Shown here piece after piece: positions 1,538 to 62,211 of a stretch of DNA of 64,000 nt (the stretch's first letter is position 1; every line of letters begins with the position of its first letter). The stretch comes from an uncultured Candidatus Saccharibacteria bacterium (lineage in GTDB: Bacteria > Patescibacteriota > Minisyncoccia > Phycocordibacterales > JACOZG01), in contig CAZYXJ010000001.1 of NCBI GenBank assembly GCA_964651115.1, forward strand, positions 286,085 through 350,084, written 5' to 3'. Below the pieces are notes generated by a model, which saw only the letters and a program-made list of their open reading frames with translations, had not been told where the DNA came from and did no database searches. A program made the translations under genes and the position numbers.

Positions 1538-2791
1538 TTGAAAGACCGTCTAAAGTTTGAAACGACCGTCTTGGACAACGGCATCACGGTCCACGCTAAG
1601 CCAGCGGATGTTCCGTTTGCTTATGTCCGCCTCTACCTTCCGGTGGGCCATGTCCATAACACTGGCGACATTTTGCCTGGAACCGCCCACTTCCTCGAAC
1701 ACATGCAGTGTAAACGTTCGGCGCTCTATCCCGACTGCGACAGCTACGATACCTTTGTGGCACTCGAGGGCGGGCAGTTCAATGCCTCAACTCATCCGGC
1801 CTGGACCGAGTATCGCCTGAAAATCCCCACTACTGTTTTTGTTCCCGCTTTCCAGGGGTTGATTAGCCACGTTCTTGAGCCAATCTTTGATGAGCGGGAC
1901 CTCGAACGCGAAATTGGAATCATCAGTAGCGAACGCCGGAGACGAAGTCGGTGGTACCCGGGCAGCGACGAACTTGAACACCACTGCCTGACTAAGTGGA
2001 AGTACGATCACCCTCTGACCCTGAGGCAAATTTTCGGCGAAGACCCCGATCTCAAACAGATGAGCGTCGAGAGACTGAGAAGGATGCACCAGGCCTATCT
2101 CGACCCCAGAGCGTACATGCTGGTGGGAGGGAATTTCGATCGGAGCCTGGTGTTCCAGGAGCTTTCTCGCTTCCCAACCGCCGAACACAACCTCTCCGTG
2201 CAGATAGAGACCTTACGGTGGGAACATCGACAGTATCACGAAGAGAAATTCCCATCGATTAACCGCTTCATTTATCACCTGGGCGGCATCGTGCCGGAAA
2301 GAGATCTCCAAATCCTGCAGGGCAACAATTTTCTCGGTAGACTGCTGGTCAACACGGTTCATGGGACTCTGTATAACTGGCTGAGACGGGAACTCGGCTG
2401 GTCCTACAATCTGGGTTTTGAACTTGACGGTGGTCACCCCCACAAACAGGCTGACTGGGAACTGTACTTGCCCGTCAACAGTTACGAGCAAGCGCAACAG
2501 GTACGAAAAGAGGTTCACGATCGGATCAGAAAGGCAATCCACGACCAAGATCTTTTGGCCACCGAACTAAGACGAAGAATCTCTGGACAAGTGTTCTGGT
2601 ATCAAACAATCGGGCAAGTTATCGACGAAGCTCACAGTTCGCTAATCGGCGATAAAAAGCTGACAAGTGAACTTGAACTAACGAACCTGCTCAAGCAATG
2701 CCAGAACCCTTCTTTTTTGGAGAACATTTACGAACGGTACTGGTCGCCCGAGGTTTCCGGCGAATTTCTGGCAATCCCAGATAACGTCTAA
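1538..2791 (+). CDS. M16-family (pitrilysin/insulinase-like) zinc peptidase
   Basis: Inverted zinc motif HxxEH (HFLEHM) near the N-terminus. Length is 417 aa. TTG start is preceded by an AAAGGAG Shine-Dalgarno. Confidence 0.7.
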   Translation: MKDRLKFETTVLDNGITVHAKPADVPFAYVRLYLPVGHVHNTGDILPGTAHFLEHMQCKRSALYPDCDSYDTFVALEGGQFNASTHPAWTEYRLKIPTTVFVPAFQGLISHVLEPIFDERDLEREIGIISSERRRRSRWYPGSDELEHHCLTKWKYDHPLTLRQIFGEDPDLKQMSVERLRRMHQAYLDPRAYMLVGGNFDRSLVFQELSRFPTAEHNLSVQIETLRWEHRQYHEEKFPSINRFIYHLGGIVPERDLQILQGNNFLGRLLVNTVHGTLYNWLRRELGWSYNLGFELDGGHPHKQADWELYLPVNSYEQAQQVRKEVHDRIRKAIHDQDLLATELRRRISGQVFWYQTIGQVIDEAHSSLIGDKKLTSELELTNLLKQCQNPSFLENIYERYWSPEVSGEFLAIPDNV

Positions 2792-2814
2792 GACCTGGCG
2801 ATTAGAAAAGATAA

Positions 2815-2842
2815 AGCCGCCTCATTTTTGAGGCGGCTTTTG
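2815..2842 (+). terminator. rho-independent terminator after the M16 peptidase gene
   Basis: Hairpin agccgcctc-attttt-gaggcggct followed by TTTTG. Confidence 0.6.
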
Positions 2843-2856
2843 CTAACTGCGGTCGA

Positions 2857-3546
2857 CTAACTTCGGTAGAACTCGGGGAACTGAGCCTCCACCTTTTTGA
2901 GGGGCTCGGGGAGATTGTTGTCGAGGCAGATCTGGATCGCCAGCTCCACATATAGCCGGTACTTCGATCCTCCCTGCCGGTAATACGCCGCCAAGACGCG
3001 GAAGCCGCGCACCCGAGCCAGTGGCGAGGCCTCAAGGGGTGGGCAACCTTCCGCCCCCATTAACCCCCGATACAAGTCGATCGAAGCCTTGGAGGCGTCA
3101 GCATCATCAATCCCCCCGAGGGAGACGCGAAGCTGGAGCCGGTTGGCAACCAGCAACAGCCGATTATCCGGTGAGAGGGATCGCTGTGGGCTCAGAGCTT
3201 CGTCCACCAGACGGAGCGCCCTTCTCCTCAGTCGCGCCGCGCGCAAAACCGAGGCACAGACATCGAGCTCGCTCGACGAGAGCTCGTAAAGCGAGGTTCG
3301 CGAGAGCTGCAACAGCACACAACGCAGAGCCAGCAGGAGATAGAAGGCGGCCCGCACCGGTCGCCGCACCGACCGAAAGTGCCCAGCCGCGCTGTAATAA
3401 GTGCTGGCCAGCGGCACCCAACGGTGATTGTTCTTCTTCGCTTTCTCCTCTCGATAAATGTCCCGCGCCAACCGGATCGCCCCGTCCGGACCGAGGTAAT
3501 TGCCCTGTAAAGTTAACTGGGATAACAACTTGTTATTATTCTCCAA
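2857..3546 (-). CDS. hypothetical protein (229 aa)
   Basis: Long ORF in a GC-rich segment. I chose the minus frame because the overlapping plus-frame ORF 3021..3602 has the Arg/Pro-rich composition typical of an off-frame read in GC-rich DNA. No recognisable motif. Confidence 0.4.
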   Translation of the reverse strand: MENNNKLLSQLTLQGNYLGPDGAIRLARDIYREEKAKKNNHRWVPLASTYYSAAGHFRSVRRPVRAAFYLLLALRCVLLQLSRTSLYELSSSELDVCASVLRAARLRRRALRLVDEALSPQRSLSPDNRLLLVANRLQLRVSLGGIDDADASKASIDLYRGLMGAEGCPPLEASPLARVRGFRVLAAYYRQGGSKYRLYVELAIQICLDNNLPEPLKKVEAQFPEFYRS

Positions 3547-3626
3547 AATCGTCCCCTTTCTTAGAAAAGAACCTTGATTGCCGTTTAACTACGCCACCTT
3601 AAAATATACTATATTTAAAATTAAAG

Positions 3627-4190
3627 TCAAATAAGTTCAAACTCTTCAAAGACGGTCCGGTAATCGGCAATGGTCTGTCGCGCTAAGCGATCCGTCAGCA
3701 CAAAGCCTGGTTCGTGAGCGATTTGGTTGCGGACTTTATGAGCCGACCAGGCCTGGTCAAGCGAAGTAAAATCACTAGGCTCAACGGCCTTAAGTTTCTC
3801 CCCCAACGAGTCTCCGCGATACTGCATGGACTTGAGGAGCTCATCGAGCATCTTATCGGCCTCGATAATTGCCAACTGCCAATCGGAAGGATTTGTCGAC
3901 GCAATCAACTGCTCCACCTTCTGCCAAGATTTGTTCTCCCGCGGAGTAAGTGCGGCCACTGGCACTCGCGACAAATTACCCACATAACCACGGCGCGCCT
4001 CTCGGATAGTGCGCGTCCAATAAAAAATCCGCCACAAAAAAATAGGAGTAACGATCACCAAACCCCACCACAGCAACCAACCGATTAATTTGACCGTCGC
4101 CCAACCGCCAGCCGAAGTGAGCAAGTTATAAACTTGCAAGTATAAATATTCGAGATTAAGAAAAAGTGGTCCGCTATACATGATGCCCAC
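3627..4190 (-). CDS. membrane-anchored protein with HEPN-like Rx4HE motif
   Basis: N-terminal hydrophobic segments (LIGWLLWWGLVIVTPIFLW). The C-terminal region contains AHKVRNQIAHE, which fits R-N-x3-H-E of HEPN/HepT-type RNase domains. Confidence 0.4.
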   Translation of the reverse strand: MGIMYSGPLFLNLEYLYLQVYNLLTSAGGWATVKLIGWLLWWGLVIVTPIFLWRIFYWTRTIREARRGYVGNLSRVPVAALTPRENKSWQKVEQLIASTNPSDWQLAIIEADKMLDELLKSMQYRGDSLGEKLKAVEPSDFTSLDQAWSAHKVRNQIAHEPGFVLTDRLARQTIADYRTVFEEFELI

Positions 4191-14283: not shown

Positions 14284-15855
14284 TCACAACTTCCCGACCT
14301 CCTCAAGTGGGATAAATCCGCCCAGCGCCTTCTTGAGCGCGTCGTCACGCATCGTGGTGAGACCTTTTTTCTTGGCCTGTTCAGCGAAACGCTCTTCGCT
14401 GGGCGCCTCAAGCAATAACTGCTCAAAATCGCGGTCCATAGGCAACATTTCAAACACCGCCATCCGGCCACGCAAGCCACCTGGGCAAGTTGGCGAGGGT
14501 TTGGGCCGATAAACCTGGCCCGGCAAAGTAAACTGCCCGCGCGCCGACTCGGGCACGTCGGACAAATACTTTTCCACCATCGTTTTTAAGCCGCCCTCCA
14601 AGGGCACTTCCTCCCGCGACTCCTCGCAGAGCGTTGGCAACAGGCGCTGAGCTACCGCCAAAATCAAGGTAGCCGAAATTAAGTAGGGCTCGACGCCCAT
14701 GTCGATCAAACGCGGAATCACGCCAGCCGTATTGTTGGTGTGCAAAGTGGAAAGCACTAAGTGACCAGTGAGCGCCGCCTGAACAGCCAGCTTGGCCGTC
14801 TCAGAATCGCGGATCTCACCAACCATGATGATATCGGGGTCCTGGCGCAAAATACTGCGCAAACCATTGGCAAAGGTGTAATGGATCTCCGGCCGGACTT
14901 GCGACTGGCTAATCCCTTCGATCGAATACTCCACCGGGTCCTCCAAGCTAACGACGTTATTCTTTTCGCGATCAATCTCTTGGAGCAAGGCGTAGAGCGT
15001 CGTCGTCTTACCCGAACCAGTCGGCCCAGTAATTAAGATCATGCCGTAAGGACGAGTGATGGCGCCCAAAAGTAGCTGTTTTTGCTCTTCGGAGAGGGCT
15101 AGATCATTAACGCGCAGACGCGTCCGTTCCGGATCCAAAATACGGATGACCACCTTTTCGCCATAGTAAGTCGGCATCGTGGAAACACGAAAGTCGATTT
15201 TGCGATTATCAATCCGCGCCGAAAAGCGGCCATCCTGGGGCTTGCGCCGCTCATCAAGCTTCATATTAGTAAGAATCTTGATACGCGCCACCACCGCGTC
15301 ATGGACCGAGACGGGCAAGAACAGCGAAGTATAGAGAACGCCGTCAACCCGGAAACGCACCTTAACCTGCTTGTCGGTTGGCTCGATGTGGATATCGGAA
15401 GCGGCCCCAGATGAGGCGTGCTGGAGGATCACCGCCACGATTTTGGTCACCGGCGCGTCCTCAACGATCTGAACCTCGCTGGGACGAGTGGGCTTTTTCT
15501 CCGTGGCAGTCTGCTTTTGCTCCTCGCTCTGGATCTCCAAATCCAAATCAGAGAGCGCCTTAGTCACCTGACTGGTCAAACCCTCATAACCCGTAATCAC
15601 CTGATCGAAATCTTTTTGACTAATGCCAAAAACTTTAAACGGCATCCCCACCTTGGTGGCGATAAACTGGAGCGCGTCGCGAGCCTCGATATTACCCGGA
15701 TCAATCATCCCCACCTCCAGCACGCCGTCACGGATCCTTAGCGGCACAAAATTATAGTACTGCGCCGAAGTCTTCGGGATGTACTTGAGAATATCTTGAG
15801 AAATTTTTTCTCCCGGTTCGATTTGCGCTACCGGAATCTCGGCGTCAGACGGCAT
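14284..15855 (-). CDS. pilB: type IV pilus assembly ATPase (GspE family)
   Basis: Walker A ITGPTGSGKTTTLYA. Length 523 aa. N1/N2 domains present. Confidence 0.9.
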   Translation of the reverse strand: MPSDAEIPVAQIEPGEKISQDILKYIPKTSAQYYNFVPLRIRDGVLEVGMIDPGNIEARDALQFIATKVGMPFKVFGISQKDFDQVITGYEGLTSQVTKALSDLDLEIQSEEQKQTATEKKPTRPSEVQIVEDAPVTKIVAVILQHASSGAASDIHIEPTDKQVKVRFRVDGVLYTSLFLPVSVHDAVVARIKILTNMKLDERRKPQDGRFSARIDNRKIDFRVSTMPTYYGEKVVIRILDPERTRLRVNDLALSEEQKQLLLGAITRPYGMILITGPTGSGKTTTLYALLQEIDREKNNVVSLEDPVEYSIEGISQSQVRPEIHYTFANGLRSILRQDPDIIMVGEIRDSETAKLAVQAALTGHLVLSTLHTNNTAGVIPRLIDMGVEPYLISATLILAVAQRLLPTLCEESREEVPLEGGLKTMVEKYLSDVPESARGQFTLPGQVYRPKPSPTCPGGLRGRMAVFEMLPMDRDFEQLLLEAPSEERFAEQAKKKGLTTMRDDALKKALGGFIPLEEVGKL

Positions 15856-15866
15856 GCGTAAAAAAG

Positions 15867-16310
15867 TTAATTATTGAGAAAATCGAACAGATCCTGCACC
15901 GCACTGCGCGGCGCGGCTGGGGCCGCCGGAGCCGCGGAGCGGCTCCCCGCCGACGAAGTGGCGGCGGCCGGCGAAGAAGTCGCCGGCCGGGCGGCATCCT
16001 TACCAATCGGCGCAAACGGATTAGGCCGACCTGGGGTTTGGGGCTTAAGCTCGGTCGAAAAGTCTTTGAAAGTTCGTAACTGGGGATAAATCTCGCTCTC
16101 CAAACTAATATTCTGCAAACTCAGCAACAGCGAGAGAAATTCGTCCGTCCCACCAGCCGCCGCGGTGCCATCCAAATAACCCACGGCCTCCACGCCCAGC
16201 AAATCCGCCGCCGGCTCTTGCCCACTCCGCCAAGCACGATAACCAAAGAACAAAGCCACGATCACAATGACCAGCAGCAACAATTTTAGCAGTGATGAAG
16301 TGCGTGACAT
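15867..16310 (-). CDS. hypothetical membrane-anchored Ala/Pro/Ser-rich protein, possibly PilP-like
   Basis: Probable start is the internal Met (MSRTSSLLKLLLLVIVIVALFF), with its ATG overlapping the pilO stop. C-terminal low-complexity AAPAAPA tail. Confidence 0.4.
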   Translation of the reverse strand: MSRTSSLLKLLLLVIVIVALFFGYRAWRSGQEPAADLLGVEAVGYLDGTAAAGGTDEFLSLLLSLQNISLESEIYPQLRTFKDFSTELKPQTPGRPNPFAPIGKDAARPATSSPAAATSSAGSRSAAPAAPAAPRSAVQDLFDFLNN

Positions 16311-16311
16311 A

Positions 16312-16854
16312 TTATTTGAGCCAATAGGTTTGAATTTCGACCGTGTAATCGTACACATCCTTCTCAGCCGAACTAAAGCCACTGGCCGTCAAATCAATCA
16401 AACGTAAACTTTGCGCCAGATCGTTGAGAAAGGCCTTAAAATTTTCGTACGAACCGGTCACCGAAAAGCCAAAGGTGACCGATCCATGCTTGTCGCTCCC
16501 CGCGGTGATCACCGACTCCTCAGTTTTGCCCTCCTCGGTCTTGATCTGGATGTTGCGAATATTCATCCCATAGGGCTTAGCGATGTTGTTGATGTCGATA
16601 ATCAAACGGACGTTATCAACGTTATCGGGCAAAAGCTTGTTAAGCCGATTAAGATCGTCTTCGGGAATTGCTCGGAACTCGGCCAAGAGCCGATCCTGTG
16701 CTTCGCGTAACTTTTTCGCATTACCGAGCGCCTGATTGAGCGTTTGCTTTTCCGTCTCGATCAAACGGATGTCGGCAAACAGGGGCTGAGTAAAGCGCAA
16801 GAAACCACCAACGGCGACGAGGATGATAATTAGTGGTCCAAGAAAGCGCAGCAT
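16312..16854 (-). CDS. pilO: type IV pilus assembly protein PilO-like
   Basis: N-terminal TM, then a coiled-coil, then a C-terminal domain. Assigned from its position after the pilM and pilN genes. Confidence 0.65.
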   Translation of the reverse strand: MLRFLGPLIIILVAVGGFLRFTQPLFADIRLIETEKQTLNQALGNAKKLREAQDRLLAEFRAIPEDDLNRLNKLLPDNVDNVRLIIDINNIAKPYGMNIRNIQIKTEEGKTEESVITAGSDKHGSVTFGFSVTGSYENFKAFLNDLAQSLRLIDLTASGFSSAEKDVYDYTVEIQTYWLK

Positions 16855-26319: not shown

Positions 26320-26393
26320 GCGCGTGTAGCTCAGTTGGTTAGAGCACCGAGCTTATACCTCGGCGGTCCTTGGTTCGACTCCAAGCACGCGCA
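26320..26393 (+). tRNA. tRNA-Ile, anticodon TAT (UAU)
   Basis: Acceptor gcgcgtg/cacgcgc. Anticodon stem ccgag/ctcgg with loop cttatac. T-arm cttgg-ttcgact-ccaag. Discriminator A. No CCA. Confidence 0.7.
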
Positions 26394-26404
26394 CTACTTG
26401 GCTT

Positions 26405-34082: not shown

Positions 34083-34133
34083 AATTTGCGTCTGGCTTTT
34101 TAGTGCTTGCACTGCGAAGCCTTGGCGAAGCAG

Positions 34134-34502
34134 TGGAGATGGCGGGAATCGAACCCGCGTCCGAATGAGTCGGTCAGTTGGAATCTACAAGTTTAGTTAA
34201 CTTTAAATTTTAAACTGTGACGATAAAAAATTAACCAAACTCGTCACAATCGAGCTCATAATTTTAGGTCTCCAACCCGAGCCGAGTTGGTTTCCGATCC
34301 TGCAAGGCAACACGGAACGGATCGAGCACAGGCACTCGGATCCGCACCGCTACATTACGCTAAAGCGAACGTAGAAGTGTAGTATGGAGATACTACACCC
34401 GTATCAGATGCGTTTGCACGTATCTGGGTGCTTGTTTTTACGAGGTCAAGCGCCTCGACCTGCTTCCTCCTGCTTCGTCAATCGTCGAAGCCGATCATCC
34501 CC
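34134..34502 (-). ncRNA. ssrA: tmRNA
   Basis: On the minus strand the 5-prime end reads GGGGATGATCGGCTTCGACG and the 3-prime end reads GGACGCGGGTTCGATTCCCGCCATCTCCACCA. An internal tag reading frame ends in ...TFALA-stop. Confidence 0.85.
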
Positions 34503-57303: not shown

Positions 57304-58506
57304 TTAGGCAATAATTTTGGTCACCACACCGGCACCTACCGTCTTGCCACCTTCGCGAATCGCGAAGCGCTGCTTCTCTTCCAAGGCAATTGGCGCCACC
57401 AACTTAACCGTAAAGGTGACCGTATCGCCAGGCATTACCATCTTAACGTCCTCGGCCAAAGTTACTTCACCCGTCACGTCAGTCGTGCGAACGTAGAATT
57501 GAGGCTTGTAGCCAGTGAGGAAAGGCGTATGACGACCACCCTCCTCCTTCTTTAAGATATAAACTTCGGCCGTAAAGTCGGTATGAGGCGTAACTGAGCC
57601 AGTCTTAGCCAAGACCTGACCACGAGTAATGTCCTCCTTCTTCGTGCCGCGGAGCAAGATACCAGCGTTGTCACCGGCCATACCCTCGTCCAACTGCTTG
57701 TTGAACATTTCGATACCGGTAACCGTCGTCTTGGTGGTTGGGTTAATACCCACGATCTCAACTTCCTCGCCCACCTTAACCTTGCCGCGCTCGATGCGAC
57801 CAGTCACGACCGTACCACGACCTTCGATGGAGAAGATGTCTTCGATTGGCATCAAGAATGGCTTGTCCGTTTCGCGAACTGGATCAGGCAAGTAAGTGTC
57901 CAAAGCGTCGATGAGTTCCAAAACCTTCTTAGACCACTCGTCGTCAGCGCTCTTCGCCTCCAAGGCCTTCAAACCAGAACCGCGGATTACCGGCACATTG
58001 TCACCGTCATAACCGTTCTTAGTAAGTAATTCGCGAACTTCGGCCTCCACCAAGTCGACAATCTCGGGATCATCAACCATGTCTACCTTGTTCAAGAAGA
58101 CTACAATCTTAGGTACACCAACCTGTCGCGCCAAGAGAACGTGCTCACGAGTTTGGGGCATCGCACCATCAGTCGCGGCAACTACGATAATGGCACCGTC
58201 CATTTGAGCGGCACCGGTGATCATGTTCTTAATATAGTCAGCGTGGCCTGGGGCGTCGATGTGAGCGTAGTGACGCTTAGCCGTCCAGTACTCCGAGTGG
58301 TGGAGCGAGATGGTAATACCGCGAGCCTTTTCTTCTGGAGCATTGTCGATACCATCAACTCCTTCTACCCGCGCACCATAGCCCTTGTCCTTATTGAGAT
58401 CGAGGGTATGTAAAATTGCCGCCGTGAGCGTGGTTTTGCCGTGGTCAACGTGACCAATCGTACCGACGTTAACGTGTGGCTTGGAACGATCAAATGTGTC
58501 TGCCAT
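57304..58506 (-). CDS. tuf: elongation factor Tu
   Basis: [21 protein letters not shown] and NKVD motifs. Length 400 aa. Confidence 0.97.
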
Positions 58507-58579
58507 AAAACTTTATATATTGCCTAGTAAATTTTTAATAATAAACGACGAAAGTTAGGCGCGCGTAATGCGTAGCACC

Positions 58580-58608
58580 ATCCTAGCAGAGACGAGAAAG
58601 ATGTCAAA
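58580..58608 (-). promoter_or_regulatory. candidate sigma70-like promoter for tuf
   Basis: On the minus strand, TTGACA then a 17-nt spacer then TAGGAT. It lies immediately after the cassette terminator. Confidence 0.35.
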
Positions 58609-58615
58609 TGGGCCG

Positions 58616-58645
58616 CGAAAAAGGCGTCCTCAATTGAGGACGCCT
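58616..58645 (-). terminator. rho-independent terminator of the small cassette gene
   Basis: Perfect 10-bp stem aggcgtcctc-aatt-gaggacgcct, then TTTTT on the minus strand. Confidence 0.5.
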
Positions 58646-58678
58646 GGGGCGTGACGCTGCCCCGATTACAGTCTTGAC

Positions 58679-58930
58679 TCACACCAGAAGCCAGTAGCCC
58701 GGCGCGAGCGCGAGGCGCTCGGAGCGGCCCGGATGGGCCGAGAGCGGCGGCGAAGCGCGCGCGGGCGCCTCCGTGGTGAGCGCGGGTCTCAGATGGATCG
58801 CCGGCGCCCACGTGGCGCTCGGAGACACGATTGCCGTTGAAGTATGCAACCCACTCCCTGCGGTCTCTGCCGGCGGCGGCAAGCACCACGGCAAAGCCAA
58901 ACAGAAGGCCACAACCAAGAACAGCCGCAT
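58679..58930 (-). CDS. small secreted Pro/Ala-rich protein (83 aa) in a high-GC insert
   Basis: ATG at 58930 preceded by CAGGAGGTGACC. Product MRLFLVVAFCLALPWCLPPPAETAGSG... has a signal peptide. Local GC is well above the neighbouring sequence. Confidence 0.4.
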   Translation of the reverse strand: MRLFLVVAFCLALPWCLPPPAETAGSGLHTSTAIVSPSATWAPAIHLRPALTTEAPARASPPLSAHPGRSERLALAPGYWLLV

Positions 58931-59119
58931 GGTCACCTCCTGAAAATAAAAGTGCAAACCCACCCTAGAACACTGGGAGAACTGTAAGGGAAGACCTACT
59001 TAGGATCACCTACCTTTCTTGGTTAGACAATTCATAGTACAGTCTCCCGAGCCCAACTCCTACAAGCTGAGCAATCTGGGAATTAGCGTAACGCAAACTG
59101 CGCTAGAGCGCAAGAGTCC

Positions 59120-61264
59120 TTATTGCCGGGCCTCGATGATCTTCTGCGCCACATTCGCCGGTACAATTTCGTAACGATCAAACTCCATATTGAAGGTGCC
59201 GCGACCCTCCGTCATCGAGCGCAAAGCCGTCATGTAACCAAACATTTCAGAAAGTGGCACTCGGGCGCGGATCACCTTCGCCAAGCCGCGATCTTCCATA
59301 CTTTCGATCTGACCGCGCTTACCAGACAGGGAGCCAGTAATATCGCCCATGAACTTTTCCGGCACCACCACTTCCACCTTCATCACTGGTTCGAGGATTA
59401 CCGGCTTGGCTCGCTTAGCGGCGTCCTGCAAGGCCATCGAGCCAGCAATCTTAAAGGCCATTTCTGACGAGTCCACATCGTGGTAAGAACCATCGTAGAG
59501 CTCACAAGAGACGTCAACCAGCTGGAAGCCAGCGACTACACCACGTTCCAAACCTTCCTTTACTCCCTTCTCCGTCGGGCTAATAAATTCTTGAGGCACC
59601 ACGCCACCCTTAATCGAGTTAATAAATTCGAAGTGCGCTTCGCGCGAAACGTTTTTAGGAATCTTGGCCTCGGGATCGAGCGCCTCAAGAGGCTTAATCC
59701 GGATGCGCACGTGACCGTACTGACCACGACCACCCGATTGCTTAATATATTTACCTTCAGCTTCGGCTGGCGCGGTAATCGTTTCCTTATAAGCCACCTG
59801 CGGCTTGCCCACATTGGCCTCGACGTTAAACTCGCGCTTCATGCGGTCAACAATAATTTCCAAATGTAATTCGCCCATACCCGAGATAATCGTCTCGCCC
59901 GTCTCCTCGTCCGTCTTGATGCGGAAAGTCGGATCCTCATCGGCCAATTTCTTAAGCGCGATACCCATCTTTTCCTGATCGGCCTTAGTTTTTGGCTCAA
60001 TACGCAACGAAATAACCGGCTCCGGAATATCGATGCCTTCCAGCAAGATCGGATGGTTAGGATCACAGAGCGTATCGCCAGTTTTGGTATCCTTCATGCC
60101 CACGGTCGCGGCAATGTTGCCAGCAAAAATCTCCTTGATTTCCTGGCGCTCATTAGCGTGCAGACGCACGATGCGACTAATGCGCTCCTGCTGACCGGTG
60201 CGCGTATTCAAAACATAAGAACCAGCCGTTAATTTACCAGAATAAACGCGAAAGAAAGTAAGCGAACCAACAAATGGGTCGGCCGCGGTTTTAAAAGCGA
60301 GAGCCGAAAAGATACCTTCGTCAGTGGCCTGGACCAAAAGGGCTTCATTAGTTTTTTGATCAACGGCTTTAGTGGGCGGAATATCGACTGGTGAAGGCAG
60401 GTAATAAGCCACGCCATCGAGGACTAATTGGACACCCTTGTTCTTGAGGGCCGAGCCACAAAAGACTGGGAAAATATGGTTAGCGATCGTCGCGTGACGT
60501 AAAATCTCGCGTAACTTTGGCAGAGAGATCTCCTTACCCTCCAAATAATCATTCATCGCGACATCGTCATGTTCAACGATTCTCTCCACCATCGTGGCAC
60601 GCTCTTTGGTAGCCAAATCTTTAAGCGAATCCGGGATCTGACCGCGAATAATCTTTTCCCCCTTATCGCCCTCAAAGGTTACATACTCCATCGTCATCAA
60701 ATCGACAATGCCCTTAAATTGGTCCTCGTGCCCATCAGGAATTTGAACCTTAACGGCCTTAGGTGACAAACGGTCCAAAATTGATTGGAACGAACGCTCG
60801 AAAGAGGCGCCCGTCCGATCGAGTTTGTTGATAAAACAAATTCGCGGCACCTTATAATCATCGGCGTAATGCCAGTTAGTTTCTGATTGCGGTTCAACGC
60901 CCGCCACACCATCAAAGACCACCACCGCGCCGTCGAGCACACGCAAACTGCGCTTTACCTCGATCGTAAAGTCGATGTGCCCAGGAGTGTCGATAATATT
61001 GAGCTTAACCTTCTGAGACTCTTTCTCGCTCTCACCGGCCTGGGTCGGGGTCCAAAAAGCGGTGGTCGCGGCGGCGGTAATGGTAATGCCACGCTCCTTC
61101 TCTTGCTCCATCCAGTCCATGGTGGCGGCTCCTTCGTGCACCTCGCCAATCTTATGTGACAAACCAGTATAAAAAAGAATGCGCTCCGACGTTGTCGTCT
61201 TGCCCGCATCAATGTGGGCAATCACACCAAAATTACGAATCTTCTCAATGGGATAATCTGCCAT
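59120..61264 (-). CDS. fusA: elongation factor G
   Basis: [11 protein letters not shown]-domain. Length 714 aa. Confidence 0.97.
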
Positions 61265-61797: not shown

Positions 61798-62211
61798 TTA
61801 TTTCTTAGGCTTCTTGGCACCATACTTGGATCGGCCTTGCATGCGCTTCTCGACGCCTTCGGCATCCAAACGGCCACGAACGATGTGGTAACGAACGCCC
61901 GGCAAGTCCTTAACGCGACCACCGCGGATCACCACCACCGAGTGCTCTTGGAGCTTGTGACCAATACCAGGGATGTAGGCCGTCACTTCCATGCCATTAG
62001 TTAGACGGACGCGAGCAATTTTACGAATCGCCGAGTTAGGCTTTTTAGGAGTGGTCGTCTTAACTTGCGTGCAAACTCCACGCTTAAATGGCGAAGGATA
62101 GTAGACTGGACGATTGTGAATCGTGTTGACGCCGCGCGCCAAAGCCGTCGCTTGAGATTTGCGACGGATCTGCTTGCGACCCCGGCGGACAAGTTGATTA
62201 ATCGTGGCCAT
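61798..62211 (-). CDS. rpsL: 30S ribosomal protein S12
   Basis: [13 protein letters not shown]... and the PKKPNSA loop. Confidence 0.95.

Follow-up and report, generated by a model that had tools for sequence, protein, structure and literature searches.

The fusA-tuf junction

The 64,000-nucleotide (nt) stretch of bacterial contig CAZYXJ010000001.1 analyzed here (the window, whose coordinates are used throughout) carries the genes fusA and tuf, encoding elongation factors EF-G and EF-Tu, and between them an open reading frame (ORF) of 83 codons, referred to as ORF83. All three are on the minus strand. ORF83 most likely encodes a lineage-specific signal-anchored or secreted small protein, as judged by comparative analysis of its sequence. 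The spacer in which it lies (58507-59119) is 613 nt long, in agreement with the approximately 600 nt given in an earlier reading of the same DNA (the original prediction). The genes of the locus are as follows.

57304-58506, minus strand: tuf, encoding EF-Tu (400 aa), downstream of the spacer
58679-58930, minus strand: ORF83, 83 codons plus TGA (ATG at 58930, TGA at 58679-58681); the product begins MRLFLVVAFCLALPWCL
59120-61264, minus strand: fusA, encoding EF-G (714 aa), identified from the ORF listing and the Pfam domains of its ortholog in L001
61306-61791, minus strand: rpsG, upstream of fusA
61798-62211, minus strand: rpsL, upstream of fusA

The start of rpsJ is 16 nt past the tuf stop codon, and tuf therefore heads the S10 gene cluster.

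Evidence that ORF83 is a coding gene

When the ORF83 product is searched against 5.8 billion protein clusters, an identical protein and three relatives of 83-86 aa are returned, the relatives aligning over their full length with 61-66% identity. All of the orthologs sit between fusA and tuf on their contigs and represent three further lineages, across which tuf has 94-97% nucleotide identity (synonymous divergence, dS, 0.21-0.27) and fusA 92% identity (dS 0.45).

In a codon alignment of the four lineages all insertions and deletions within ORF83 are multiples of three. Variable sites fall 9/2/12 at the first, second and third codon positions in codons 1-20 and nearly evenly (15/16/19) in the middle 33 codons. 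The last 26 codons contain seven variable sites, every one of which is at a third position and synonymous. A random single change in this 78-nt tail region is synonymous with a probability of 0.30, giving P = 2e-4 for seven out of seven, and in any of the other five frames the number of silent changes among the seven is just 0-4. The ratio of nonsynonymous to synonymous divergence (dN/dS) for the whole of ORF83 is 0.30-0.57; for the C-terminal 28 codons, dN amounts to 0-0.035, with dS of 0.28-0.40 between the window and each ortholog and 0-0.08 among the three orthologs. No frame other than that of ORF83 lacks stop codons in every one of the four lineages. On these comparisons we hold with high confidence that ORF83 is a real protein-coding gene under purifying selection; the coding signal on which the original prediction had staked its gene is present, both in the seven synonymous tail changes and in the in-frame indels.

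The alternative that there is no gene, and that a segment rich in G+C (GC) is a structured untranslated RNA or untranslated region with the ORF a by-product of stop-poor sequence, is scarcely credible. Long ORFs are indeed found here in several frames (121 and 94 aa on the minus strand, 45-56 aa on the plus strand) and RNAalifold gives one compensatory pair in the coding 3' part, but the tail substitutions are silent in a single frame, the one that also stays open in all lineages and takes its indels in threes, and these same substitutions break two other predicted pairs. ORF83 RNA moreover folds no better than shuffled sequence (z = -0.32), and Rfam searches, both at the gathering threshold and at E<=10, return only noise, the best match scoring 18 bits against a gathering score of 70.

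Two longer frames were considered and rejected. A 94-aa version of ORF83 extended to a GTG start contains an extension that is deleted in the orthologs, and a 121-aa overlapping frame spans the terminator and promoter described below, has none of the seven changes synonymous, and is interrupted by stops in the orthologs.

Organization of the ORF83 product

The predicted product is composed of three parts.

58871-58930, minus strand: codons 1-20, putative signal peptide or signal anchor, consisting of M-R, a 15-residue hydrophobic helix and an invariant LPPP (alignment, AlphaFold2, hydropathy)
58760-58870, minus strand: codons 21-57, a fast-evolving linker, predicted disordered, with in-frame indels and one conserved block, PS[AV]TWAPAI (alignments, AlphaFold2)
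58682-58759, minus strand: codons 58-83, an invariant C-terminal tail of 26 residues, RASPPLSAHPGRSERLALAPGYWLLV (alignments, codon test)

Alanine and proline account for 33% of the residues, which accords with the Pro/Ala-rich body originally described. The N-terminal segment is conserved in character, with a basic residue followed by a hydrophobic helix (hydropathy of residues 1-15, 2.0), and fits Sec targeting; its positive n-region and its h-region match the pattern of a Sec signal peptide. In an AlphaFold2 model built from the alignment of the four sequences, residues 2-16 form a helix with a predicted local distance difference test score (pLDDT) of 74-82, and the remainder is disordered (pLDDT ~50). 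That the product is targeted to the membrane or the secretory pathway is thus somewhat probable. The secreted peptide with a signal peptide that was first proposed is upheld as regards the conserved helix after a basic residue, and less so as regards cleavage: with Glu at -3, or Pro at -3/-2, in the candidate sites, a signal anchor that stays uncleaved is at least as likely as a cleaved signal peptide. A bacterial lipoprotein was rejected as a candidate, since the lipobox [LVI][ASTVI][GAS]C does not match; Cys10 is preceded by V-A-F or I-T-F, with Phe at -1.

Distribution of ORF83

Neither Pfam nor NCBIfam has a match to ORF83 at E<=10, and an exhaustive hidden Markov model (HMM) search of 1.84 billion representative proteins recovers the ORF83 family alone, together with one spurious polyproline match. 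No paralog is found within the window by tblastn. The BLAST and HMM check suggested for the peptide therefore has a divided outcome, with orthologs in the same slot and none outside the clade in either the 5.8 billion clusters or the 1.84 billion representatives. A scan of a genome collection returns only the one known public metagenome-assembled genome (MAG) with an ORF83 ortholog, a metagenome scan with an invariant 26-mer of the tuf leader returns nothing, and an exact-protein look-up of the window EF-Tu finds no entry. Samples with members of the clade include SRR14271365, ERZ15185090 and the source of GCA_964444555.1. As far as these searches reach, ORF83 is restricted to one narrow group of uncultured Patescibacteria, and it would constitute a new orphan small-protein family of a familiar kind, that of small envelope-targeted proteins.

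A scan of Joint Genome Institute (JGI) metagenomes with the back-translated peptide ALAPGYWLLV yields no orthologs, only transporters of the major facilitator superfamily (MFS) and GC-rich noise. MFS-type transporters of unrelated metagenomes (L011, L012, L014-L019) carry the motif ALAPGYW[LF][LF]V within a transmembrane helix, a chance likeness to the ORF83 C-terminus.

Transcription and translation signals

The spacer contains the following signals, listed in the direction of transcription.

59085-59113, minus strand: candidate weak promoter TTGCGC-17-TACGCT, directly past the fusA stop; hexamers invariant and spacer variable in orthologs; low confidence
59051-59072, minus strand: hairpin GCUCAGCUU-GUAG-GAGUUGGGC, upstream of ORF83; retained in four lineages, any changes being one-sided (wobble)
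59003-59020, minus strand: element AAGAAAGGTAGGTGATCC, near-invariant in orthologs and unique in the window; no start codon follows
58934-58941, minus strand: Shine-Dalgarno (SD) sequence AGGAGGTG, 5 nt before the ATG; the octamer is invariant in all orthologs and the flanking bases vary
58646-58663, minus strand: small hairpin GGGGC...GCCCC between the ORF83 stop and the terminator; ortholog hairpins differ in sequence, and one lineage has none
58618-58645, minus strand: intrinsic terminator with a perfect 10-bp GC-rich stem (58645-58636/58631-58622), AATT loop and TTTT-C; U-run of 4-5
58580-58607, minus strand: predicted sigma-70-type promoter of tuf, TTGACA (58607-58602), 16-nt spacer and (TGn)TAGGAT (58585-58580); invariant in all orthologs
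58507-58579, minus strand: AU-rich 5' leader of tuf, lacking an SD; predicted unstructured and invariant in all orthologs

The perfect 10-bp terminator hairpin of the original prediction is confirmed, and all ten pairs are kept in the four lineages, one having changed on both sides (C-G to U-A) and three by wobble. The region that includes the terminator has an RNA folding z of -3.86. A pattern scanner for terminators required at least 5 T, hence the terminator at 58618-58645, with its short T-run, was not listed by it. The tuf promoter agrees with the consensus at 10 of 12 positions and has a TG one base upstream of the -10 hexamer; the two hexamers named at the outset, TTGACA and TAGGAT, are present and invariant in the orthologs, but they are separated by 16 nt rather than 17. 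From the tuf -35 hexamer to the tuf ATG there are 102 nt that are invariant in the four lineages, as are the first 71 nt of tuf itself; for the same lineages, synonymous divergence elsewhere in tuf and fusA is 0.2-0.45. Folding prediction gives the leader less structure than its shuffled counterparts (z = +1.56). From this arrangement we think it very likely that the terminator and promoter form an operon boundary between rpsL-rpsG-fusA and tuf plus the S10 cluster, and the tuf promoter probably drives the S10 cluster too.

In the str operon of E. coli, as a model bacterium, tufA has secondary promoters, separate tuf promoters located downstream of or within fusA. The locus described here is similar in that tuf has transcription signals of its own besides the upstream ribosomal-protein promoter, and differs in that fusA is followed by an additional cistron and a complete intrinsic terminator before tuf is reached, and in the fusion of tuf to the S10 cluster.

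Upstream of ORF83, the TACGCT of the candidate promoter matches the -10 consensus at three of six positions. A terminator-like hairpin after the fusA stop was rejected, as a GCGC to GTAC change in the orthologs breaks its stem, and its bases read better as the variable spacer between the invariant hexamers TTGCGC and TACGCT. There is no conserved terminator between fusA and ORF83, and read-through transcription from fusA is the simplest assumption. The element AAGAAAGGTAGGTGATCC, ~75-90 nt upstream of the ORF83 start, is complementary, save for one extra base, to the canonical 3' tail of 16S rRNA. An attenuator composed of the small hairpin, an antiterminator and the terminator was also rejected; by inspection, the alternative pairing is not conserved in orthologs.

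ORF83 is the only gene of the locus with a canonical SD, and the pairing of an 83-aa ORF with a strong SD was correctly anticipated: the ORF runs from 58930 to 58679 with the SD 5 nt before its ATG. The SD core is absent before the first start in 65 of the 69 long ORFs of the window, none of the 10 other called genes of L001 has an SD, and the genes examined in the relatives L008, L009 and L022 likewise have none. The leaders of tuf, fusA, rpsJ, rplD and rplW are AU-rich and SD-less. Patescibacteria of the ORF83-related group seem, from these leaders, to initiate translation mostly without an SD. Rare SD-led genes are found in other SD-poor genomes, such as rpsU in the Bacteroidota, and ORF83 resembles them in that a canonical SD is present on one gene while most genes, including highly expressed ones, have none; ORF83 differs in having no evident ribosomal-protein link. 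A perfect SD on one gene amid SD-less translation genes is the most unusual point of the locus, and special initiation or regulation, if real, would bear on how translation starts in reduced bacteria.

The fusA-tuf junction in relatives

The next-closest EF-Tu proteins are <=92% identical to that of the window; where named, they come from Patescibacteria (Nomurabacteria, Vogelbacteria and Paceibacterota). The submitter label of the sole public MAG with an ORF83 ortholog is Candidatus Saccharibacteria, and in view of these nearest named EF-Tu kin the label may be imprecise.

In the nearest relatives without ORF83 the fusA-tuf gap is 0.9-1.6 kb and contains other orphan genes, some on the opposite strand, or the two genes are not adjacent. 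The closest outgroup contig (2,234 nt, in ERZ27297570, EF-Tu 92% identical) has a 108-aa ORF in the slot. The regions upstream of tuf that contain orphan genes are as follows, each in the coordinates of the relative.

L008, 2544-3899: fusA and tuf separated by an opposite-strand gene and a gene of ~200 aa, with the gene directly upstream of tuf at 3312-3899
L009, 3168-3836: opposite-strand gene of 222 aa between fusA and tuf
L010, 2573-3888: rplL and hypothetical genes precede tuf in place of fusA, with the gene directly upstream of tuf at 3151-3888
L021, 1987-3382: fusA and tuf separated by an opposite-strand gene and a gene of ~200 aa
L022, 436-3406: rplL and hypothetical genes precede tuf in place of fusA, with the gene directly upstream of tuf at 2750-3406

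The genes directly upstream of tuf in L008, L010 and L022 form a single family, N-terminally anchored and with a weak PsbP_2 match. They resemble ORF83 in slot, strand, lineage restriction and the possession of an anchor helix with a low-complexity linker, and differ from it in their length (195-245 aa), their globular domain and the lack of an SD; there is no detectable homology between the two.

The opposite-strand genes between fusA and tuf in relatives imply an operon boundary at this position. Judged by synteny, the junction in the ORF83 group and its relatives is an operon boundary hosting lineage-specific envelope-targeted orphan genes, and not a disrupted operon. This leaves little of two parts of the original prediction: the junction described as usually tight has gaps of 0.9-1.6 kb, other genes, or non-adjacent partners in relatives, and what was taken as an insertion into the str operon is at an operon boundary where relatives carry other orphan genes. 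A literature search for a small ORF between fusA and tuf in Patescibacteria found nothing relevant.

Base composition and origin

The mean GC content of the window is 0.521 (standard deviation 0.046-0.061) and that of 58520-58965 is 0.608. The richest 300-nt segment, 58638-58937, reaches 0.69, the richest 200 nt (starting at 58697) 0.74, and the richest 150 nt (starting at 58690) 0.767. This peak ranks first in the window at every size tried, ~3.7-4 standard deviations over the mean, so that the GC outlier check proposed with the original prediction comes out in its favor; other peaks of 0.70-0.75 are present, e.g. at 15896, 10337 and 4987, and the spacer peak heads a distribution instead of standing alone. 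The contrast estimated by eye, ~70% against 55%, is accurate for the segment, but the background is 52%.

With the amino acid composition of ORF83 and the codon usage of the window, a GC of 0.645 is predicted, against an observed 0.699; approximately two-thirds of the excess over 0.52 is therefore due to the Ala/Pro/Arg/Gly/Leu content. GC at third codon positions (GC3) is 0.807, whereas 0.648 +/- 0.051 is expected (P ~0.001) and the genome stands at 0.59 +/- 0.05. Among 1239 windows of 83 codons cut from long ORFs not one is as high. This bears out the claim of atypical composition. The orthologs have GC3 of 0.77-0.80.

The GC peak ranking second in the window (15867-16382, minus strand) corresponds to the C-terminal tail, rich in Ala/Pro/Ser, of a membrane-anchored ORF (~150-170 aa) that is situated just upstream of a PilB-like ATPase gene (14284-15855). 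The GC3 lift of this tail is smaller, 0.70 against 0.60.

We consider it unlikely that the cassette was acquired horizontally from a GC-rich, SD-using organism, an origin that would be compatible with the function preferred below. The GC3 of ORF83, its possession of a canonical SD among neighbors and relatives that have none, and its absence from the next-closest genomes (EF-Tu <=92%), where other genes occupy the slot, all speak for such an origin. However, no homolog is found outside the clade in either of the large protein collections, blastn against plasmids and phages gives no ORF83 match, the JGI metagenome scan gives chance matches only, and there are no direct repeats, tRNA, integrase or transposase flanking ORF83. 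Most of the GC excess comes from the Ala/Pro/Arg/Gly content, a native Ala/Pro-rich tail in the same window also raises GC3, the high GC3 persists in all orthologs, and ORF83 has been inherited vertically in the same slot in four lineages. With no donor homolog, no mobility signature and roughly two-thirds of the GC excess attributable to composition, the horizontal acquisition originally suggested is unproven.

Possible function of ORF83

Overall, we regard it as fairly probable that ORF83 is a translated, lineage-specific small-protein gene at the boundary of two transcription units, with an envelope-targeted product and a functional tail. ORF83 would be transcribed by read-through from fusA as the last cistron of rpsL-rpsG-fusA, possibly with a contribution from a weak promoter of its own, and would be translated by SD-dependent initiation, unlike its SD-less neighbors. 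The helix would target the nascent chain to the Sec translocon in an N-in/C-out orientation, after which the product would either stay anchored or be cleaved. The disordered linker would act as a spacer presenting the invariant tail, the putative functional module, outside the cytoplasmic membrane. The transcript would end at the intrinsic terminator, and tuf and the S10 cluster would restart from their own strong promoter. The anchored extracytoplasmic orphan gene directly upstream of tuf in relatives counts in favor of this interpretation.

Several points weigh against it. The conservation test compares four shallowly diverged lineages and so depends on few substitutions, and the structural model is of low confidence beyond the helix (mean pLDDT 58). 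The candidate cleavage sites, PPPAETA↓G and PPPEAA↓x, are poor signal-peptidase sites owing to the residues at -3 and -2 noted above. Neither the strong SD and the upstream element complementary to the 16S tail nor the GC3 of ORF83 is explained by the model.

Among the other functions considered, ORF83 might be a cis-acting regulatory nascent peptide, in which the helix reports Sec engagement and the tail (~26 residues, roughly as long as the exit tunnel), aided by PPP/PP, stalls the ribosome; stalling would then tune the neighboring translation-factor genes, for example through terminator read-through into tuf or the stability of the fusA transcript. We think this quite unlikely. Four criteria have been published in the search for monitoring substrates, including an N-terminal localization signal, a conserved C-terminus and a spacer of >30 aa (PMC10987492), and ORF83 shows three of the four (ii-iv), with ~63 aa separating the C-terminus from the helix end. 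It shares these three features (an N-terminal signal or transmembrane segment, a variable spacer of >30 aa and a conserved Pro-containing C-terminus) with the Sec/YidC monitoring substrates SecM, MifM, VemP, ApcA/ApdA/ApdP and the RQH family. A near-neutral middle is expected if the signal and the tunnel segment alone matter, and the position of ORF83 within a very strongly conserved regulatory spacer and its unique SD in an SD-less genome are further points in favor. Against this, ORF83 is not upstream of secA, secDF or yidC; the downstream gene is tuf, with a conserved terminator and an invariant promoter of its own intervening. The ORF83 stop is 33 nt before the terminator stem, beyond the ribosome footprint; the sole conceivable antiterminator pairing in the window is, on inspection, not conserved in L001, L002 and L004; and no SD-sequestering stem extends into the gene downstream. 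Of the motifs listed for monitoring substrates (PMC10987492), ORF83 has no RAPP-like, RAGP, KYxIW or R/Q/H-A/G-P-P/G sequence. RAPP, RAGP and RAPG are all absent; in their place ORF83 has LAPG, and its tail reads ...SERLALAPGYWLLV. The conserved PSATWAPAI, located 38-47 residues short of the C-terminus, would be at the tunnel exit or past it, and this points to a role for the mature protein.

A broader version, that ORF83 is a new kind of translation-coupled sensor whose Sec-targeted chain, SD-started in an organism otherwise initiating without an SD, would let its tunnel-length C-terminus, polyproline and 16S-tail-complementary element feed the status of ribosome or translocon back to expression of the translation-factor operons, appears very improbable. 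We give still less credence to ORF83 as a truncated remnant of the ~200-aa anchored weak-PsbP_2 gene found upstream of tuf in relatives, the anchor and linker having been kept and a new C-terminus gained. The two do have slot, strand and anchor-plus-linker layout in common, and there is a short resemblance between PSATWAPAISNNDAFT in ORF83 and PSATAPILNTPDNSFT in L008, at much the same distance from the anchor; but the hhalign probability from comparing the two profiles is 0.15%, BLAST against a tiny database yields E-values of 4-60, and tblastn reveals no remains of the globular domain in any frame of the spacer.

An envelope-targeted small-protein gene, our preferred reading of ORF83, adds a well-supported small-protein family to the Patescibacteria (the candidate phyla radiation), whose envelope and host-interaction proteins are largely unknown, and presents the fusA-tuf junction of this group as an operon boundary that has repeatedly hosted lineage-specific genes for such proteins. 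None of these findings overturns current understanding.

Other features of the window

Two RNA genes elsewhere in the window were noted.

26320-26394, plus strand: tRNA-Ile with anticodon UAU (ARAGORN), an uncommon way to read AUA in bacteria
34131-34502, minus strand: transfer-messenger RNA (tmRNA) gene, with the tag peptide ANASDTGVVSPYYTSTFALA

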